Below are positions 2,594-59,677 of a stretch of 64,000 nucleotides of DNA, in pieces; the stretch's first letter is position 1, and every line of letters starts with the position of its first letter. Under the pieces are notes generated by a model. It saw nothing but the letters and a program-made list of their open reading frames with translations. It had not been told where the DNA came from and searched no databases. The stretch covers positions 1,548-65,547 of the forward strand of contig DATDXI010000066.1 of the NCBI GenBank assembly GCA_035289385.1, written 5' to 3'. This DNA comes from Candidatus Nanoarchaeia archaeon (GTDB lineage Archaea > Nanobdellota > Nanobdellia > Woesearchaeales > GW2011-AR9). The translations under genes and the position numbers were made by a program.

Positions 2594-2626
2594 GTACGTA
2601 TTTAGTTCGGTTAAAATAGTGGGCAG
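2594..2626. repeat. Solo terminal-inverted-repeat fragment of the MITE-like family (GTACGTATTTAGTTCGGTTAAAATAGTGGGCAG)
   Basis: About 33 nt that are nearly identical to the reverse complement of the right ends of the elements at 33990-34173 and 42393-42559. The body of the element is absent. Confidence 0.5.
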
Positions 2627-2773
2627 TGTTAATATTTGACGATAGAACTATGGTCTTGTCTTAACCAAATAATCTTAAAACAGTGGATAATATGAAAAGC
2701 ATCTCCGTCACTTATACCCACTGCTCAGAGTGTAGTAAAATATTTAATGGTGTTATTGTTTTGGTAATAAAAA

Positions 2774-3091
2774 GTGGCAGAAACAAGAATCATTAAAGAG
2801 GTAAGTTACTTGGAATATAAAGAGCTTATTGACAAATTCAAAGGTAAGATTAAAGTTAATTCCCATACCTGCTTTAGATTAAATGAACAGCAATGAAAAG
2901 TATATAAAGATGAGGCTCTTGTAGAACCATTAACTGGAGAAAAACCAGCATTTATTGGAATTCAGAAAAACCAAAATTATGCAACATTTTTCAGTAATAA
3001 ACAGGGTTATCTTCGGTTAATGTTTAAGGTGACCAACACAAATATTGAAATAGTAACATTTTACCTGATTGACAACATACCAAAAATCTAA
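2774..3091 (+). pseudogene. DUF4258-like (putative toxin-like) gene interrupted by an in-frame TGA at 2894-2896
   Basis: The single frame reads (V)AETRIIKEVSYLEYKELIDKFKGKIKVNSHTCFRLNEQQ*KVYKDEALVEPLTGEKPAFIGIQKNQNYATFFSNKQGYLRLMFKVTNTNIEIVTFYLIDNIPKI. The C-terminal ...IVTFY pattern is typical of DUF4258. It lies directly upstream of a DUF2283 gene, which is the usual partner. Confidence 0.4.
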
Positions 3092-3092
3092 A

Positions 3093-3476
3093 ATGAAAAT
3101 AAGACAGCTTGATGCAAAAGGGAAGGGGGAAATGGATTATGATTATGCAAATGATATTTTATTCTTTAAAGTTAAAGAAAGAGAATATGATCATTCCATT
3201 GAATTAGAAGATGTTATTTTAGATATTGATAAAGAAAGATACATTACAGGAATCCAAATTTTTGGAGCATCAAAGATGTTTAATGTTGAGAAAGACGCTT
3301 TACGGAATGTTAAAAAATGGGAGTTTAAAGTGAGAACAGAAGGTAAGGTTGTCTATGTTCAGTTAATGTTTGAAATGTTACGAAGAAATCAAGTAGTAGA
3401 ACGTGGTCAAAACTTGGTGAGAGAAGCTTCATCTTTATTGACTGATTCTGAAGTTATGTGTGCAGCAACAGCATGA
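3093..3476 (+). CDS. DUF2283-family small protein; the track ORF starts at a TTG at 3069, but ATG 3093 is the probable start
   Basis: MKIRQLDAKGKGEMDYDYANDILFFKV...DIDKERYITGIQIFGAS matches the DUF2283 pattern (YD.e.D.l.i....G.I.GIEI..AS). Confidence 0.5.
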   Translation: MKIRQLDAKGKGEMDYDYANDILFFKVKEREYDHSIELEDVILDIDKERYITGIQIFGASKMFNVEKDALRNVKKWEFKVRTEGKVVYVQLMFEMLRRNQVVERGQNLVREASSLLTDSEVMCAATA

Positions 3477-3552
3477 TTTATTGCCTTCTTGGTCTATACC
3501 CATAGCTTGCTGCGACGGAGAGCTTAATTCCTTTCTGGAAGAAGAGATAAAA

Positions 3553-3921
3553 CTATTTCAAGTGTTGTGTTATATCTCCTACTACTTTATCAGAATCAAA
3601 TTCTCCTTTATCATAGAAACCATTTGCTCCATAACGAAGAGCATTCCTAACAACATCTGAACCTCCCGCGCTTACTAAATAGAATGGAACATTATTTCCT
3701 GATCCTCTAATTTTTTGGAGAGATTTTAATCCTGCACCTTTTTCTTCCATGTCATTATCACTGATAACTAAGGAATAATCCCCCTGTAAAACACGTTCTA
3801 CTAAGTCACTCCCAGTTTCAACTGCATCAACCTGCGCATCTGGAAAAGCATTTTTTACTAAACTAACATATGTTCCTCTCCAACTTGGATAGTCGTCAGC
3901 AACAATAACCTTCTTTACCAT
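3553..3921 (-). CDS. Stand-alone CheY-like response-regulator receiver domain protein
   Basis: Has the acidic pocket (VIVADDYPS ... LVISDNDMEE) plus a conserved downstream Lys/Ser pattern. The 122-aa length is typical of receiver domains. Confidence 0.65.
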   Translation of the reverse strand: MVKKVIVADDYPSWRGTYVSLVKNAFPDAQVDAVETGSDLVERVLQGDYSLVISDNDMEEKGAGLKSLQKIRGSGNNVPFYLVSAGGSDVVRNALRYGANGFYDKGEFDSDKVVGDITQHLK

Positions 3922-4026
3922 TTTCCATTGGATAAATAAGACTTATTTATATATCTTCCGCTTAATTGTAACTAAAAAGTAGTGTTTAATTTTCTAAGAT
4001 CTTACACAGGTTTCGTATTAGTCCCC

Positions 4027-18145: not shown

Positions 18146-18300
18146 CTGCGCATTTTAGCATTAACTCATTTGATTAACCGCGCATTTTTACATTAGTTTA
18201 TTAAATATATTAAAATATGTAGGAATAAGCTTAAAATAGCTGAAAATTAACCGCGCATTTTGACATTTATACATTAAAAATAATGCGCATTTTGACAAAG
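18146..18300 (+). promoter_or_regulatory. Four direct copies of a GCGCATTTT(A/T/G)(A/G)CA motif upstream of the RelA/SpoT-domain gene
   Basis: The copies are ctGCGCATTTTAGCAtt (18146-18163), aaccGCGCATTTTTACAtt (18176-18194), aaccGCGCATTTTGACAtt (18249-18267) and aatGCGCATTTTGACAaa (18282-18299). They lie in a 220-bp AT-rich intergenic region ending 30 bp before the ATG. Confidence 0.5.
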
Positions 18301-18330: not shown

Positions 18331-19398
18331 ATGAAAAAAGTTAATCCAAAAGTATTCTCAAAATCCCGGACAGATTTAGCTGGAGATATATTGTGTAATT
18401 CCCAGAGTTCAGAAGAGGAAAAAGATGAGGCTTTAGAGATATTGAGCAACTGGAGAGGTGCACATAGCTATCCCCTGCATGTTTTTAAACAGCGATTAAA
18501 AAATGTTTCTGAAAAAATAGATCCCTCTGCATTATCAGCACAGCGACTAAAACGTGTCCCTTCTATTATAAAGAAGCTTAACCGGGAATATGGCGGTAAA
18601 AAAGCCACGATGAAATTAACTCAAATGCAAGATATTGCTGGATGTAGGGCCGTTATGTCTAATGTATCATTGGCAAAAAAACTATATTTAGATCATTACA
18701 TAAAGGGTGATATAAAACATAAACGGGTAAATGAAAAAGATTATATCACTCATCCTAAGAAAGACGGGTATAGAAGTATTCATTTAATTTATAGATATCA
18801 TAGTGATAAAAAAGGAAGAATTAATTTCAATGGGTTATTGATTGAAGTCCAGATTAGATCTAAGTTGCAGCATATATGGGCTACAGCAATTGAAACTGTT
18901 GATTTTTTTACAAGACAAGCGATAAAATCAAATCAAGGTCAAGAAGATTGGGCAGATTTTTTTAGATTGGTAAGTTCTGCATTTGCTAAGTTTGAGGGGT
19001 GTCCAACAATACCAGAAACACCAACAGATGAAGAAGAACTCTACAAAATGATTAAGCAAAAAGAGATGGAGCTTCAGGTTAGAATAAAGATGAATCGTTG
19101 GGCAAAATCACTCAAGCTTTTTGATAATTTAAAAAATAAAAAGAATTTTCACTTTTTTCTATTGGAATTAGATACCATTCAAGAAAAACTAACTATCTCT
19201 GCATACTCCAAAAGACAAGAGCAAAAAGCTATCTTCGATTATGCAGCGGCTGAGAAAAAGATTTATGGCAGGGGAGAGTATGATGTTGTTCTAGTAGGTG
19301 CAGATACTGTTAAAGATTTGAAAAAAGCTTATCCCAATTACTTTCTTGATACTAAAGAATTCCTAATTAATCTTAATAAAGTTCTCAATAAACATTGA
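18331..19398 (+). CDS. RelA/SpoT-domain protein (small alarmone synthetase / toxSAS-like nucleotide pyrophosphokinase)
   Basis: Synthetase-domain signatures: MQDIAGCRAVMSNVSLAKKLY, KKDGYRSIHLIYRYHSD and LIEVQIRSKLQHIWATAIE, equivalent to the DIAG.R, GYRSLH and EVQIRT..QH.WA motifs of RelA/SpoT synthetase domains. The protein has about 155 extra C-terminal residues and no hydrolase domain. Confidence 0.75.
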   Translation: MKKVNPKVFSKSRTDLAGDILCNSQSSEEEKDEALEILSNWRGAHSYPLHVFKQRLKNVSEKIDPSALSAQRLKRVPSIIKKLNREYGGKKATMKLTQMQDIAGCRAVMSNVSLAKKLYLDHYIKGDIKHKRVNEKDYITHPKKDGYRSIHLIYRYHSDKKGRINFNGLLIEVQIRSKLQHIWATAIETVDFFTRQAIKSNQGQEDWADFFRLVSSAFAKFEGCPTIPETPTDEEELYKMIKQKEMELQVRIKMNRWAKSLKLFDNLKNKKNFHFFLLELDTIQEKLTISAYSKRQEQKAIFDYAAAEKKIYGRGEYDVVLVGADTVKDLKKAYPNYFLDTKEFLINLNKVLNKH

Positions 19399-33943: not shown

Positions 33944-33989
33944 TTTAAGCTTAATTTAAGCAGGGTATTTATAAATATTGCGGTTTGGA

Positions 33990-34173
33990 GTACGTATTTA
34001 GTTCAATAAAGAAAATAGTGGCAGGTCGGAAAATCTAGCCTGACTTTCTTGATAAGCAATGATTGAGCTTTGATTTTAAGCTAAAAGTCAGGCAACTAAA
34101 CAGGTCTTACGAAGCTCTCAATATATTTTCCCTCTTGACCTTGCCACTATTTTTAACCGAACTAAATACGTAC
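33990..34173. mobile_element. MITE-like element copy A (184 bp) with 15-bp TIR GTACGTATTTAGTTC and candidate 8-bp TSD GGTTTGGA
   Basis: The left end is GTACGTATTTAGTTCAATAAAGAAAATAGTGGCAGGTC. The right end is GACCTTGCCACTATTTTTAACCGAACTAAATACGTAC, which is its reverse complement apart from a few mismatches. The flanking GGTTTGGA occurs at 33982-33989 and 34174-34181. The interior contains the inverted repeat AGCCTGACTTT/AAAGTCAGGC. Confidence 0.6.
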
Positions 34174-34230
34174 GGTTTGGATCGCTGGGTTTCCCTTAAG
34201 CTATGGTCTTAGGAGTTATACTTGCCCGAT

Positions 34231-37480: not shown

Positions 37481-38746
37481 CTACCGGAGAAGGTGTGTTC
37501 TTCGTCCATACGTTTCTAGAATCGTTTTTTCTTGTTCGGGATCCATTTCATAACGGCCTTTCTCTACTTTTCTGACACCTATTCTCTGCATAAATCCAGT
37601 AAATGATCCTAAGGGGATGTCATATGTTGATGTGATTTCTGTGAACGTCCAGACTTTAGCAAGGGTGCCTGATCCGTTTCCTTCTGAAGATACATTATCT
37701 GCTAGGTTATCTGAGGGAGAGTTTTTCACTATTTTTTTTTTCCCCAGACCTAAGCGGTTGATCCTATCGTAAAGGCTCTTTTTGCTAATGCCAAGGCGCT
37801 TGGCGGCCATATTTTTATTCCCTTTGGTATTTGCCAAAGCGGTGAGAATACATGAACGCTCAGTCTCTTTCAAAATGTCGTAGATGGTTCTTTCCTGTCT
37901 TCTTTCGGTTGTTTCTGTAGTTTGAGATAAAGATGTCCAATCATAATTGATGTCCTCTGCCTGAATTTCACCTGCTCCTCGTAGGATGATAGCTCTCTCC
38001 ACGACATTCTCCAAATCTCTTACATTGCCACCCCAGTCATAGAGCTTCAGCTTTTCCTGTGCTGCTGGAGAGATGCCCGTTACTTCTATTCCATGATCCT
38101 GGGCATATCTTTCTATAATATATCTAGCTATCAGGGGGACATCATCAATCCTGGCGCGCAAGGGAGGAAGTTCTAGAGGAAAAGCATTGAGGCGATAAAA
38201 TAGGTCTTGCCGAAAAGTTCCTTTACTCATTTCGTCTTCAAGATTGCGGTTTGTCGCGGCGAGAATTCTTACATTGACAGGAACAGGGGTATTGCTTCCT
38301 ACCGGGAAAACTACGCGCTGCTGAATCACTTGAAGCAGCTTTGCCTGTAAATGGGGGGACATTTCTCCAATTTCATCAAGAAGGATAGTCCCTCCTTCAG
38401 CAGCTTGAAAATATCCCTTGTAGTCTTTTATTGCGCCAGTAAATGATCCTTTAGCGTGACCAAAAAGCTGAGATTCTAAAACTCCTTCCGCAATTCCTGG
38501 ACAATTTACGGTAAAGAATGGTTTTGCTCCACGGCCATTTCTGTTGTTGTAATGAAGAGCAGCAGCAACCAATCCTTTTCCCGTTCCTGTCTCACCGGTA
38601 ATCAAAACGTTGGTTGGCATGTCCACAAGGCGATTGATAAAACCATAGAGTTGCAGCATTTCAGGAGTTTGACCAACAATAGGCCCTTGGCCATGTTCTA
38701 TCATATATCGGCCAGTCTCTGGAGAATAATGTCTTATTTCTGCCAT
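37481..38746 (-). CDS. Sigma-54-interaction-domain AAA+ transcriptional activator (bacterial enhancer-binding-protein type) with Fis-type HTH and ~85-aa C-terminal extension; no N-terminal sensor domain
   Basis: Walker A GETGTGKGLVAAALH, the GAFTGA-equivalent loop GHAKGSFTGAIKD, Walker B GGTILLDEIGEM, an arginine-finger region RILAATNRNLEDEMSKGTFRQDLFYRLN, and an HTH block ILTALANTKGNKNMAAKRLGISKKSLYDRI. Confidence 0.75.
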   Translation of the reverse strand: MAEIRHYSPETGRYMIEHGQGPIVGQTPEMLQLYGFINRLVDMPTNVLITGETGTGKGLVAAALHYNNRNGRGAKPFFTVNCPGIAEGVLESQLFGHAKGSFTGAIKDYKGYFQAAEGGTILLDEIGEMSPHLQAKLLQVIQQRVVFPVGSNTPVPVNVRILAATNRNLEDEMSKGTFRQDLFYRLNAFPLELPPLRARIDDVPLIARYIIERYAQDHGIEVTGISPAAQEKLKLYDWGGNVRDLENVVERAIILRGAGEIQAEDINYDWTSLSQTTETTERRQERTIYDILKETERSCILTALANTKGNKNMAAKRLGISKKSLYDRINRLGLGKKKIVKNSPSDNLADNVSSEGNGSGTLAKVWTFTEITSTYDIPLGSFTGFMQRIGVRKVEKGRYEMDPEQEKTILETYGRRTHLLR

Positions 38747-38790
38747 CTTATAGCTAGAAAATCACTCATTTATAAATGTGATTGCAACAA

Positions 38791-39011
38791 GTATGTATTA
38801 AGTTCTACAACAAAAATAGTGGCAGGTCGGAAAATTCAGCGAGACTTAATGTAAGAAGTAGCTTGATGAGTGATAGTTTAAGCAAATGGTCTCGCAACTA
38901 GCCTTGTTTTACAAAGTTCTTAATGAATTTTCCCTCTTGACGTTGACCTGAGCGAGCAAGAAGCGAGCTCTTGCATTTCAGACCACTATTTTGACCGAAC
39001 TTAATACATAC
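38791..39011. mobile_element. MITE-like element copy B (221 bp) with perfect 15-bp TIR GTATGTATTAAGTTC and 8-bp TSD TGCAACAA
   Basis: The left end GTATGTATTAAGTTC (38791-38805) and the right end GAACTTAATACATAC (38997-39011) are exact reverse complements. TGCAACAA flanks the element at 38783-38790 and 39012-39019. The interior is homologous to copies A and C (AAAATAGTGGCAGGTCGGAAAAT ... GCAACTAGCCTTGTTTTACAAAG ... TTTTCCCTCTTGAC). Confidence 0.65.
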
Positions 39012-39157
39012 TGCAACAATCTTGTCGGAGAAGGAAATGAAGTTTGCATTCTCTTTTCATCACTAAAACATTAAGGATAATCCTACCTATTCTACCACCA
39101 AAAACTTTAATAAGCATTTGGCAATTACTGAGGTAGTATAGGGGGTCGGCATAAAAG

Positions 39158-39793
39158 ATGGTGAAAAACTTTTTCAAAGTTTTACTGAAGAAACTTTCTA
39201 TGAATCCTTTCGCTAAGAAAAGCCATGTTAAGCTAGGTCTCTATGGTCCGCCGAACGGGGGAAAAAGTACCTTAGCCAACCGGATCTGCCAGGACTGGCT
39301 GGGAGAAGAGATGTCCTCCGTTTCTCATGTTGCTCACGAAACGAGAGAAATAACGATCAAAGAGCAAGTGAACATCAAAAATAAGAAGGGCAAAGAATTG
39401 ACCTTTTCTGTCGTTGATACTCCAGGTATAGCTACAAAAATAGATTATGAAGAGTTCCTTAAGAAAGGGCTGAAAAAAGCGGATGCTAAAAAGCGGGCCA
39501 AGGAAGCTACCAAAGGAGTCATTGAATCTATCAAGTGGCTTGATGAGATGGATTCTGTCGTCGTTGTCCTTGATGCTACGAAAGACCCCTATTCCCAAGT
39601 CAATATCACCATCATCGGCAATTTACAGGCAAGAGATATTCCCGTATTGATCGCGGCAAATAAAGTGGATCTAAAAAAAGCAAATATCGAAGCGATCCAG
39701 GCAGCATTTCCCCAATATAAGATTGTGGGCATCTCCGCAAAGTATGGGAAAAACATCGAAGAGTTCTATGAACAGCTATTCCAGCTGAACTAG
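39158..39793 (+). CDS. Small P-loop GTPase (archaeal, TRAFAC class)
   Basis: G1 GLYGPPNGGKST, G3 VVDTPGIA, G4 ANKVDL. The likely start is M15 (MNPFAKK...). Confidence 0.7.
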   Translation: MVKNFFKVLLKKLSMNPFAKKSHVKLGLYGPPNGGKSTLANRICQDWLGEEMSSVSHVAHETREITIKEQVNIKNKKGKELTFSVVDTPGIATKIDYEEFLKKGLKKADAKKRAKEATKGVIESIKWLDEMDSVVVVLDATKDPYSQVNITIIGNLQARDIPVLIAANKVDLKKANIEAIQAAFPQYKIVGISAKYGKNIEEFYEQLFQLN

Positions 39794-39895
39794 AACTATC
39801 CTGCCTTGGCCATAAGAAAAGCTGCTAAAAAGGTGCAAGCGCAAAAACATTTAAAAACATAGAAACTATCCCTCAACCTAAAAAGAAGTGAAACC

Positions 39896-40300
39896 ATGGT
39901 TACTTTCCAATTTATACCGTATCAGGAAGTGGAAAATCTAGGTTCAGCTAAACGTGTCAATAAGCTGCTGAACATCGTCAAGGAAGATAAGATTGTCATC
40001 ATGGAAGGCCGGCTGACCAAGCAAGAAGAGGCAGATCTTATTGAAATAACGATGGAAGAGATTTCTCCCAAATTTAAGGGGATAGAATTAAGTGTTGTTT
40101 ACCCTGACAAGAAAGACCAACGCCCGATGCAGAAGATGAAAGGTGTTTTTGCCAATATGCTTCTGGGAGATAGGATGGGGCTGACCATCATCGGCCCGGC
40201 TTCTGTCGTCAAGAAGATCGAAAACAATCCCGATCGGATTGAGCTGTTTATGAACGAGGGGAACGCTCCTAGATTTAGAAAAAGAAGGCGTAACCATTAA
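39896..40300 (+). CDS. Conserved archaeal small protein (DUF2073-like; assignment tentative)
   Basis: 134 aa, immediately downstream of the GTPase. Confidence 0.35.
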   Translation: MVTFQFIPYQEVENLGSAKRVNKLLNIVKEDKIVIMEGRLTKQEEADLIEITMEEISPKFKGIELSVVYPDKKDQRPMQKMKGVFANMLLGDRMGLTIIGPASVVKKIENNPDRIELFMNEGNAPRFRKRRRNH

Positions 40301-40302
40301 CG

Positions 40303-40698
40303 ATGCCACACCAATGCGTGCGATGCAGTACTCTTTATCCCGATGGCTCACAGGAGATTCTGCGCGGCTGTACTTGTGGAGCAAGATTGTTTTTCTACAT
40401 CAAGAAGAAAGCTCTTGAGGAAGGGAAAGAGCTCATCAACAATTTGACGGATGAAGAGAAAAAGAATATTGAGAAAGATGTTGCAGAGATCGTCAACATC
40501 AAGCAGGAAGATCCTGATGCTCCCGTTATTCTGGATATTGAAGCCATTCGTGTCTTAAAGCCAGGGAAATATGAATTAGACCTAGTTCATCTGTTCAAGA
40601 AAGATCCCTTGATCATCAAGTTAGAGGAAGGGAAATATATCATTGACTTGCCGCAATTATTTAAGAAAGAAGATGATAAGGGCAAGAAAGGGAATTAG
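40303..40698 (+). CDS. Zn-ribbon protein (C4: CVRC...CTCG), DUF2072-like; tentative
   Basis: MPHQCVRCSTLYPDGSQEILRGCTCGARLFFY. Third gene of a GTPase triad. Confidence 0.4.
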   Translation: MPHQCVRCSTLYPDGSQEILRGCTCGARLFFYIKKKALEEGKELINNLTDEEKKNIEKDVAEIVNIKQEDPDAPVILDIEAIRVLKPGKYELDLVHLFKKDPLIIKLEEGKYIIDLPQLFKKEDDKGKKGN

Positions 40699-41377: not shown

Positions 41378-41485
41378 GCACCGGTAGTATAGTGGTTAGT
41401 ATGTCGGCCTTCCATATAGGAAGTGTCTTTTGAGGCTCTTCTGCGAAGGGAGCCGATCACCCGGGTTCGAATCCCGGCCGGTGCA
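41378..41485 (+). tRNA. tRNA-Gly (anticodon UCC) with a 36-nt intron after position 37/38
   Basis: Acceptor GCACCGG/CCGGTGC, D arm GTAT-AGTGGTTA-GTAT, anticodon stem TCGGC/GCCGA and loop CT-TCC-A, T arm CCGGG-TTCGAAT-CCCGG, discriminator A, no encoded CCA. The intron is 41415-41450 and contains GGAAG complementary to the anticodon-loop CTTCC (bulge-helix-bulge style). Confidence 0.7.
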
Positions 41486-42311: not shown

Positions 42312-42392
42312 ATGAAGAGAGAAAGAAAAACTCCTTTTATATTTTGTGGGTCAAGGAATCAGACCAAGAATAAAAAAATATTTATTTTTTAT

Positions 42393-42559
42393 AACGAAAA
42401 TAGTGGCAGGTCGTAAAATCCAGCAAGGCTTACTCTGAAAGTGAATGTATTCCCATAAGTTTTAAGTGGAAAGCCTTGCAACTAGACTTGTCTTACGACG
42501 CTTTTAATGGATTTTACCTCTGGACCTTGCCACTATTTTTAACCGAACTAAATACGTAC
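42393..42559. mobile_element. MITE-like element copy C (left end truncated)
   Basis: GAAAATAGTGGCAGGTCGTAAAATCCAGCAAGGCTT ... GGAAAGCCTTGCAACTAGACTTGTCTTACGACG ... TTTTACCTCTGGACCTTGCCACTATTTTTAACCGAACTAAATACGTAC. The right TIR is intact. The outer 15 nt of the left TIR are missing. Confidence 0.55.
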
Positions 42560-42571
42560 ATAATAAAATTA

Positions 42572-42858
42572 TTAGGGGCATGCCCTCGGTCGAATATACT
42601 TGGCTACTGCAGCTGAACCCTAACGGCTTCTCGGACCTGCGCTCCTCTGAACATGGACAGTACAGGTTATGGCTGCTTTCTTCCGAATCTGACCAGATTC
42701 CCAGCATCGCCATCCCAAAGGACAGATCGTCAGCAAAGACGCCAGGACTGCAATAACCCCGTAAACCCTTCCTCAGGCTTCGGCTCCGTGTAAAGTCCGT
42801 TCACGGTGACAACGCAGGACTAGCGCGCCAGCCTAGCTTACCCTAATCTCTAGCTTGA
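42572..42858 (-). ncRNA. ffs: Signal recognition particle RNA (7S/SRP RNA); boundaries approximate
   Basis: GC-rich (about 55%) 290-bp non-coding stretch in a roughly 40% GC genome. The minus strand reads GGUCAGAUUCGGAAGAAAGCAGCCAUAACCUG. This matches the universally conserved SRP RNA helix-8 (domain IV) motif CAGGUCCGGAAGGAAGCAGCC, including the GGAA tetraloop and the AGCAGCC asymmetric loop. The 3' end has a GGGCAUGCCC hairpin. Confidence 0.65.
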
Positions 42859-59270: not shown

Positions 59271-59289
59271 TTCTGATTGAAGAAAAAAA

Positions 59290-59521
59290 GTAGCGGAGGA
59301 TGGATTCCCCCGCCAGTTACCCTAGGCGAGTCGTATGTCTGAGGGATATTCTGCCGAAATCCCTCTTATTGGAAAGGAAATGTCTGCTGTTATTTCCTTC
59401 AATAATTCTGGAGAGTTTAATAAATGAATAATAAAAAATAGCGGAGGATGGATTCCCACGCCAGTTACACTAGGCAAGTCGTATGTCTGAGGGATATTCT
59501 GCTGAAATCCCTCTTATTAGA
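59290..59521. repeat. Two tandem ~85-bp direct repeats, each beginning with a copy of the 3'-terminal 17 nt of the adjacent initiator tRNA gene (att-like)
   Basis: GTAGCGGAGGATGGATTCCCCCGCCAGTTACCCTAGGCGAGTCGTATGTCTGAGGGATATTCTGCCGAAATCCCTCTTATTGG (59290-59373) and TAGCGGAGGATGGATTCCCACGCCAGTTACACTAGGCAAGTCGTATGTCTGAGGGATATTCTGCTGAAATCCCTCTTATTAG (59439-59521). A third GTAGCGGAGGATGGATT copy is the tRNA 3' end itself (59602-59618). Confidence 0.55.
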
Positions 59522-59602
59522 AATACAGAAACTAAATATTTTTAAGAAGAATACCTAGATTTTCAGAAGTATACCATTTTCAGGATGAATAGATAAAAAA
59601 AG

Positions 59603-59677
59603 TAGCGGAGGATGGATTTGAACCATCGATCTCAGGGTTATGAGCCCTGCGGGTACTCCTAGCTTCCCTACTCCGCT
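59603..59677 (-). tRNA. Initiator tRNA-Met (anticodon CAU)
   Basis: The minus-strand sequence reads AGCGGAG-UA-GGGAAGCUAGGAGUACCC-G-CAGGG-CUCAUAA-CCCUG-AGAUC-GAUGG-UUCAAAU-CCAUC-CUCCGCU-A. It has an A1:U72 pair and three consecutive G:C pairs in the anticodon stem, the archaeal/eukaryal initiator hallmarks. There is no encoded CCA. Confidence 0.7.

Follow-up and report, generated by a model that had tools for sequence, protein, structure and literature searches.

A MITE family clustered at the upstream edge of archaeal BRE/TATA promoters in groundwater metagenomes

The sequence at 38791-39011 of the window (the whole 64-kb stretch of DNA that was analysed) is a non-coding mobile element, a MITE. 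It belongs to a dispersed family whose copies have 15-nt TIRs, are flanked by 8-bp TSDs and cluster at one position beside BRE/TATA promoters. Read outward from one flank of most elements, the 8-bp TSD was followed by approximately 6 nt of A-rich BRE and then by a TTTAWAWA TATA box. The presence of MITEs in archaea is already known, and this target rule at the promoter edge, together with a covarying hairpin, is what the family adds.

MITEs have been described from Sulfolobus (SM1-SM4), haloarchaea and other archaea (PMC10969869), and a Woesearchaea genome was among the most MITE-dense archaeal genomes in a MITE census (PMC11602168). In a literature search, no description was found of this family, of its TIR or of BRE/TATA-adjacent targeting; the supplementary catalogue of PMC11602168 was outside this search. 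Like archaeal and bacterial MITEs, the element is small, non-coding, multicopy and intergenic, with TIRs, fixed-length TSDs and no transposase of its own. Unlike described MITEs, this family has its target at a defined BRE/TATA position and a hairpin that is kept by compensatory change.

Anatomy, copies and mobility of the family

The element at 38791-39011 is designated copy B. The initial annotation had given it perfect 15-bp TIRs and an 8-bp TSD. Both were present, and the arms (38790-38805 and 38997-39012) were 100% complementary over 16 nt, the 15-nt TIR plus one additional base. Across the family, the TIR consensus GTACGTATTTAGTTC was found with at most two mismatches at both ends of at least 50 complete elements from the window, one MAG and the metagenome matches listed; the 15-nt TIR alone is GTAYGTATTWAGTTC. 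A subterminal AAAATAGTGGC motif was found in both arms. The core form of the family was approximately 185 bp, and complete copies were 167-294 bp (mostly 184-187 bp), too small for a transposase-sized ORF. A 39-nt T1 insert makes copy B longer than the core form. A conserved segment of 28-30 nt, restricted to the 3' arm, gives the element a polarity. Coordinates are listed in Table 1.

With at most three mismatches allowed, the TIR pattern had six matches in the window where 2.04 were expected; a count of six was reached by 1 of 100 shuffles. All six matches (33990 and 34159-34173, copy A; 38791 and 38997, copy B; 42545-42559, copy C; 2594, a solo end) were at the ends that had been named in the initial annotation, and the three bodies aligned, as expected of the two further homologous copies and the solo end proposed there. 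Copy A had a perfect 8-bp TSD (GGTTTGGA) at 33982-33989 and 34174-34181. Copy C, which looks like an old copy, is separated by 15 nt from the archaeal SRP RNA gene, whose 3' end faces it. The 5' end of the copy was not at the customary 6 nt from a TATA box. The solo end adjoined a stretch of low GC content (2594-3950; 0.34 vs approximately 0.42) with only small ORFs and a receiver-like ORF of 122 aa; the MITE may have been truncated here by an insertion or rearrangement of later date.

Table 1. Features of the MITE copies, their targets and neighbouring genes in the window
Feature	Position	Strand	Details
Solo remnant	2594-2626	-	3'-arm-type end, reversed, truncated after approximately 33 nt
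Copy A target: TATA box (Rpb7-like gene)	33968-33975
Copy A target: BRE	33976-33981
Copy A target: TSD	33982-33989
MITE copy A	33990-34173	+	184 bp; 33982-34181 with TSDs
Sigma54_activat / AAA_lid_14 / HTH_8 protein gene	37481-38746	-	421 aa; Sigma54_activat E 1.9e-60
TATA box of sigma-54-type gene	38769-38776	-	TTTATAAA
BRE of sigma-54-type gene	38777-38782	-	ATCACA; abuts copy B TSD
Left TSD, copy B	38783-38790	.	TGCAACAA; direct repeat, 8 bp
MITE copy B	38791-39011	+	221 bp; T1-insert subfamily; profile match to model positions 1-185
Left TIR, copy B	38791-38805	+	GTATGTATTAAGTTC; 15 nt
5' strand of conserved covarying helices 2-4, copy B	38813-38845	+	AAAATAGTGGCAGGTCG-GAAAATTCAGC-GAGAC
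Unpaired conserved segment, copy B	38896-38925	+	3' arm only; family consensus CAACTA..CTTATCTTACGAAG..CTTAATG
Nested hairpin insert, type T1, copy B	38943-38981	+	39 nt; 3' arm
Right TIR, copy B	38997-39011	-	15 nt
Right TSD, copy B	39012-39019	.	TGCAACAA; direct repeat, 8 bp
GTPase gene, then OapB and OapC genes	39158-40698	+	Right of copy B
tRNA match	41378-41485	+	108 nt; Rfam 56.7 bits; missed by ARAGORN
MITE copy C	42374-42559	+	Profile match 42388-42559; 3' TIR (42545-42559) intact, 5' TIR decayed
Archaeal SRP RNA gene	42575-42843	-	117 bits

The copy set comprised the window, one Woesearchaeota MAG and groundwater metagenome loci. In species-representative genomes, 46 matches to a 17-mer of the conserved arm were listed, about the number expected by chance. 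The whole element could be aligned at only seven of these 46, all from JACOZM01 ('Candidatus Woesearchaeota archaeon NC_groundwater_205'), the one MAG with the family among the species-representative genome matches listed. All five full copies in this MAG had 8-bp flanking repeats (three perfect, two with 7/8). In metagenome contigs, the TIR-plus-subterminal pattern was found at 119 loci or more, mostly from samples Ga0209541 and Ga0209542, and a profile search returned at least 88 segments in 64 sources, some of these being two pieces of one copy around a nested insert. Numerous contigs terminated within copies, as is typical of a dispersed repeat; most apparent solo ends belonged to complete copies whose second TIR had diverged further, or lay at contig edges. 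Among the matches listed, the family was confined to the Woesearchaeota MAG and groundwater metagenomes. Genes identical to those of the window were present on contigs of samples ANAN16-1, JGI 3300025317 and JGI 3300002502, which from their names we take to be aquifer groundwater. The sharing of the repeat family suggests that its hosts are probably Woesearchaeota-like DPANN archaea.

Flanking repeats were assessed for 48 non-edge elements among the matches listed. The octamers were perfect repeats in 32 elements, had one mismatch in seven and two mismatches in three, and differed at four or more positions in six. Repeats with zero or one mismatch were thus present at 39 of the 48 copies, and the octamers all differed between copies. 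The copy A site was empty in a relative: in contig L166, whose strain shares 93-98% identity with the window, the two flanks adjoined each other around a single octamer (TCAAAACC vs TCCAAACC in the window); the downstream BRE/TATA was the same as in the window and the upstream flank was more diverged. Together, the TSDs and the empty site establish transposition with 8-bp staggered target cuts. A flank-to-flank search of the fetched loci for clean empty sites returned same-strain duplicates only, and copy B was occupied in all contigs that carried its neighbour genes.

All non-redundant full copies (n = 49) were intergenic. Their orientation relative to neighbouring genes had no bias (12 opposite/opposite, 9 same/same, 9 divergent, 7 convergent). 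The family therefore comprises short non-coding elements with TIRs, fixed-length TSDs of differing sequence and dispersed copies with presence/absence polymorphism. The MITE reading of the initial annotation is borne out by the distinct TSDs at copies elsewhere and by the empty site in a relative, both of which it had named as checks, and by the dispersal of the copies through intergenic sequence. Shorter derivatives were also recovered. In one population (L171:2780-2855; L169, ANAN16-1_SAMN03842431 scaffold_19629), copy B lacked 147 nt of its interior and 74 nt were left, which reflects either a genuine polymorphism for the deletion or a palindrome that collapsed during assembly. Other short derivatives were 92 bp (L101) and 154 bp (L157) in length.

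Several further features of the window were recorded. The protein encoded to the left of copy B is a bacterial-enhancer-binding-protein-like AAA+ ATPase without an N-terminal sensor domain, in which a GSFTGA loop replaces GAFTGA; to our knowledge, archaea are not known to have sigma-54. The window is archaeal, as seen from its SRP RNA gene and from the Rpb7-like, ribosomal protein S24e, ZPR1 and Oap proteins that it encodes, and a replication origin may lie near the OapB and OapC genes. The tRNA match is presumably an intron-containing tRNA, since its length of 108 nt implies an intron. The region 59274-59618 contained 91-nt direct repeats, 93% identical (59285-59375 and 59433-59523), and a third partial copy (59586-59618) overlapping the 3' end of a tRNA-Met gene (59602-59677, - strand), which was the only Rfam match in this region. 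An integration scar is one possible origin of these repeats; duplication of tRNA fragments is another. Two 37-nt direct repeats (18173-18209 and 18246-18282; 84% identical, 73 nt apart) were located just upstream of the ORF at 18331-19398 and may be a regulatory site.

Position of the copies relative to core promoters

Distances from the element end to the nearest start codon clustered at 44-48 nt. TATA-like 8-mers were called in the flanks at a threshold of 7/8 matches or better. Counted from the element end, such an 8-mer started at offset 14 in 27 flanks and at offsets 13, 15 and 16 in 4, 3 and 6 flanks, respectively; most other offsets between 0 and 51 had 0-3. A TATA-like box at offset 12-16 was found for 34 of 47 elements, at the 5' end in 17, at the 3' end in 15 and at both ends in two. 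The other 13 had no TATA box at the expected offset, and many of these were located between convergent gene ends. A fixed distance to the TATA box, with either element end facing the promoter, is the pattern of landmark targeting. In two copies (L103), the same spacing upstream of a TATA box was followed by tRNA-like sequence, as judged by eye.

In the host, the TTTAWAWA motif is the standard core promoter. Of 67 window ORFs, 21 had a TATA-like 8-mer positioned exactly at -30 from the ATG, and 45 hits fell within -33 to -28. Given this position at -30, most window genes appear to be leaderless. The TATA boxes of the window were preceded by an A-rich BRE, roughly RAAAnn. When 26 empty-site reconstructions were aligned, the BRE (nAAAnn) and TATA box were conserved, and the TSD and the far side had no consensus. 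The target is therefore asymmetric, with BRE and TATA conserved on one side alone.

Both intact copies in the window conform to this arrangement. The TATA box of the Rpb7-like gene was 6 nt from the TSD of copy A. The initial annotation had placed copy B just upstream of a sigma-54-type activator gene, and this assignment stood: the Sigma54_activat match was strong (Table 1) and the ATG was 44 nt from the element. It had further suggested two possible effects of the copy on the promoter of this gene, supply or disruption. The position upstream of the gene was upheld and the supply or disruption of its promoter was not, the BRE and TATA box being intact. The core promoter of the gene is intact and its upstream edge is the target of copy B.

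A covarying hairpin with nested inserts

Single-strand folding gave one long hairpin for each of the two copies folded, with energies of -74.2 kcal/mol for copy B (z -6.6) and -65.3 kcal/mol for copy A (z -8.4), z scores being relative to shuffles. For covariation, 36 distinct copies of core length were aligned (194 columns, 80% mean identity). RNAalifold gave four helices comprising 41 pairs. Standard pairs made up 97.6% of cells compared with 92.7% in shuffles, and 11 of the 41 pairs had changes on both sides (6.3 +/- 1.2 in shuffles). At the level of cells, changes on both sides numbered 74, compared with 30 in shuffles; the copies are related, so that covarying cell counts overstate independent events, which correspond to few subfamilies. 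None of 500 shuffles reached the observed pairing or covariation values. When partners were slid by 1-3 columns as a control, pairing fell to 32-44%. Covarying pairs included 54:110 (CG 19, GC 12, AU 4), 55:109 (UA 18, AU 15), 42:149 (UA 17, GC 12) and 48:143 (UA 17, CG 11).

These alignments suggest that the long hairpin is under some constraint in addition to mobility. Compensatory changes keep the pairing, which points to constraint on the folding of single-stranded DNA or RNA or on matched binding sites in the arms. Pairing would be kept by one of three things: a single-stranded DNA intermediate, a read-through RNA, or matched transposase-binding sites. On the oriented strand, G-T mismatches exceeded A-C mismatches (33 vs 17 cells; 19 vs 11 columns; p approximately 0.03, uncorrected for relatedness), a weak hint that the fold of one strand matters. 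It is speculation that transcription reading through towards the downstream promoter stops at the T-tracts located close to the two ends (CCACTATTTT(T), on either strand). An apical region resembling C/D boxes by eye was considered and rejected, the motifs not being common to the subfamilies.

Nested hairpin inserts of four types (about 33-39, 42, 49 and 110 nt) were seen at fixed positions within copies, namely in copy B and in L069, L103, L162, L152, L143, L048, L080, L101, L119, L078, L092, L147, L151, L059 and L115. The T1 insert of copy B was also present in L143 and, at the mirror-image position in the 5' arm, in four other copies. The possibility that the T1-T4 inserts are independent mobile hairpins was rejected: all insert matches were inside MITE copies, at fixed positions, and the inserts are therefore read as subfamily-specific hairpin expansions.

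Targeting, alternative explanations and meaning

The promoter-edge position was compared with a null model of uniform insertion over those parts of each spacer that lie outside ORFs and core promoters. Calling of ORFs and start codons was mechanical, and the distances and null-model figures are accordingly approximate; the single-position offset spike is independent of gene calls. With at least one flanking gene start (n = 30), 24 elements were promoter-adjacent vs 5.3 expected. Of the 21 elements whose spacer left 60 nt or more free, 17 were promoter-adjacent vs 0.75 expected, and none of 200,000 simulations reached 17. It is improbable that the pattern is due to purifying selection only, with random insertion and survivors that spare ORFs and core promoters. 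No copy was within an ORF and many spacers were short, the original spacer being barely larger than promoter plus TSD in L063, L069 and L154b, and such short spacers leave little choice of site, so that selection contributes to the pattern. It does not explain the position alone: copies in the roomy spacers were still BRE-adjacent, and the offsets formed a spike at one position rather than a plateau over the permissible space.

The covarying hairpin and the very low folding energies would also be expected if the copies were genes of a structured small RNA or a cis-acting RNA element instead of mobile DNA, and the G-T excess on the oriented strand points in the same direction. As a primary identity for the family this is very unlikely, given the distinct duplications at 39 of 48 copies, the empty site for copy A, the lack of orientation bias relative to genes, the lack of an Rfam match (E<=1) for either copy examined, and the lack, by eye, of a BRE/TATA-like promoter at a fixed place within the element. 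The initial annotation had raised a small RNA family as an alternative to the MITE. The covariation that it had named as favouring such a family was found (11 pairs) and the identity itself was not supported; an RNA role on top of mobility is possible. The same hairpin, with the same mismatch bias as a hint of single-strand pairing, could be put down to descent from a single-strand transposon of the IS200/IS605 type, as palindrome-associated derivatives, or to other foldback elements moved as hairpins. IS200/IS605-type elements have subterminal hairpins and are not known to have TIRs or target duplications, and both of the latter were consistently present in the family, which leaves this origin a slight chance only. 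Finally, the OapB, OapC and GTPase genes immediately to the right of copy B bring to mind ORB-like origin-recognition elements beside an oapA-like/oapB/oapC cluster. That the inverted repeats are such elements is scarcely credible and the reading was rejected, as the distribution of copies contradicts it: the element was found at dozens of unrelated loci, each with a duplication of its own, and was absent from one orthologous site.

The preferred reading is a single explanation that combines a MITE family, a transposase acting in trans, promoter-edge targeting and a constrained hairpin, and it is held with good confidence. The cognate transposase was absent from the window, as the initial annotation had reported, with no transposase or IS-like structure in the window region. 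When every ORF of 150 aa or longer in 64 family loci (452-480 kb among the matches listed) was clustered, no multi-copy protein emerged, and in approximately 480 kb no perfect 12-nt TIR pair was found 0.6-3.5 kb apart with a duplication of 4, 5, 8 or 9 bp. Viral contigs and plasmid and phage collections contained no family member. The metagenome scan depended on the subterminal motif, and an IS with the 15-nt TIR alone escapes it. Since no transposase was found in the window or in the approximately 480 kb of loci, the element is read as non-autonomous. The transposase, its family and a cut-and-paste chemistry are thus inferred from TIR/TSD anatomy alone.

IS66-family elements make 8-bp duplications and have ends starting 5'-GTAA. 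The present element is similar in its 8-bp TSD and in termini that start GTA (GTACG/GTATG), which makes IS66 a tentative lead. It differs in that neither a transposase of the IS66 type nor a corresponding full-length element turned up among the family loci. Duplications of 8 bp are also made by other families, such as IS256, IS6, ISL3, IS1595 and the ISH1 group.

A putative course of events is as follows. The trans-supplied transposase would bind the 15-bp TIRs and the subterminal motif of both arms and would integrate the element through 8-bp staggered cuts. The octamer duplicated in this way normally adjoins the upstream side of the 6-nt BRE, with the TATA box beyond it, and is at approximately -44 to -37 from a leaderless gene start. 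Either element end can face the promoter; the core promoter is thereby spared and no gene is hit. Insertion at the promoter edge would then amount to a 'safe site' strategy for a gene-dense genome. Because the target is asymmetric, a landmark would have to be read, which may be the BRE/TATA sequence or the bent TBP/TFB-promoter complex.

A more specific form of this mechanism is offered tentatively and is rather doubtful. The transposase would read no DNA sequence, but would dock on the bent core promoter bound by TBP/TFB and cut at its upstream border. The data agree equally well with a transposase that reads the BRE/TATA sequence directly. If docking occurs, the hairpin would serve a transposition intermediate or would insulate the promoter from upstream read-through. 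Brf1 of TFIIIB is a relative of TFB/TFIIB, and docking on TBP/TFB would parallel, for a DNA transposon of archaea, the docking of Ty3 integrase on TFIIIB. We know of no prokaryotic transposon for which guidance by the basal transcription machinery has yet been shown, and this family would be the first.

Site-directed elements of other kinds are known from prokaryotes, among them Tn7 at attTn7, IS1397/ISKpn1 in REP palindromes and class C group II introns after terminators. As in these systems, an asymmetric landmark lies by the insertion point and there is no palindromic target consensus. Unlike the Tn7-type landmark, that of the present family is a general core promoter, with hundreds of potential sites per genome in place of a single locus or repeat family. 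DPANN genomes are typically small. Retrotransposons of yeast (Ty3) and Dictyostelium (TRE/DGLT-A) target Pol III genes through TFIIIB, and integration of Ty3 and TRE at the TFIIIB edge has been read as a safe haven in compact genomes (PMC6101501, PMC5911963, PMC8632968). The MITE family shares with Ty3/TRE a near nucleotide-precise position at the edge of a promoter of the TBP plus TFIIB-family type, independence of orientation and a gene-dense genome. It differs from them in that Ty3/TRE are retroelements with integrases for which the TFIIIB protein contact has been demonstrated, whereas here the element is a DNA MITE and recognition of TBP/TFB is hypothetical.

The order TSD, 6-nt BRE and TATA box provides a direct prediction for identification of the transposase and for integration assays with TBP/TFB. 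Copies of the family mark promoters in uncultivated archaea and explain many contig breaks, and their presence or absence provides strain-level markers for population studies. Targeting of safe sites may extend beyond eukaryotes, in that an archaeal MITE family appears to use the BRE/TATA edge as Ty3/TRE use Pol III promoters.
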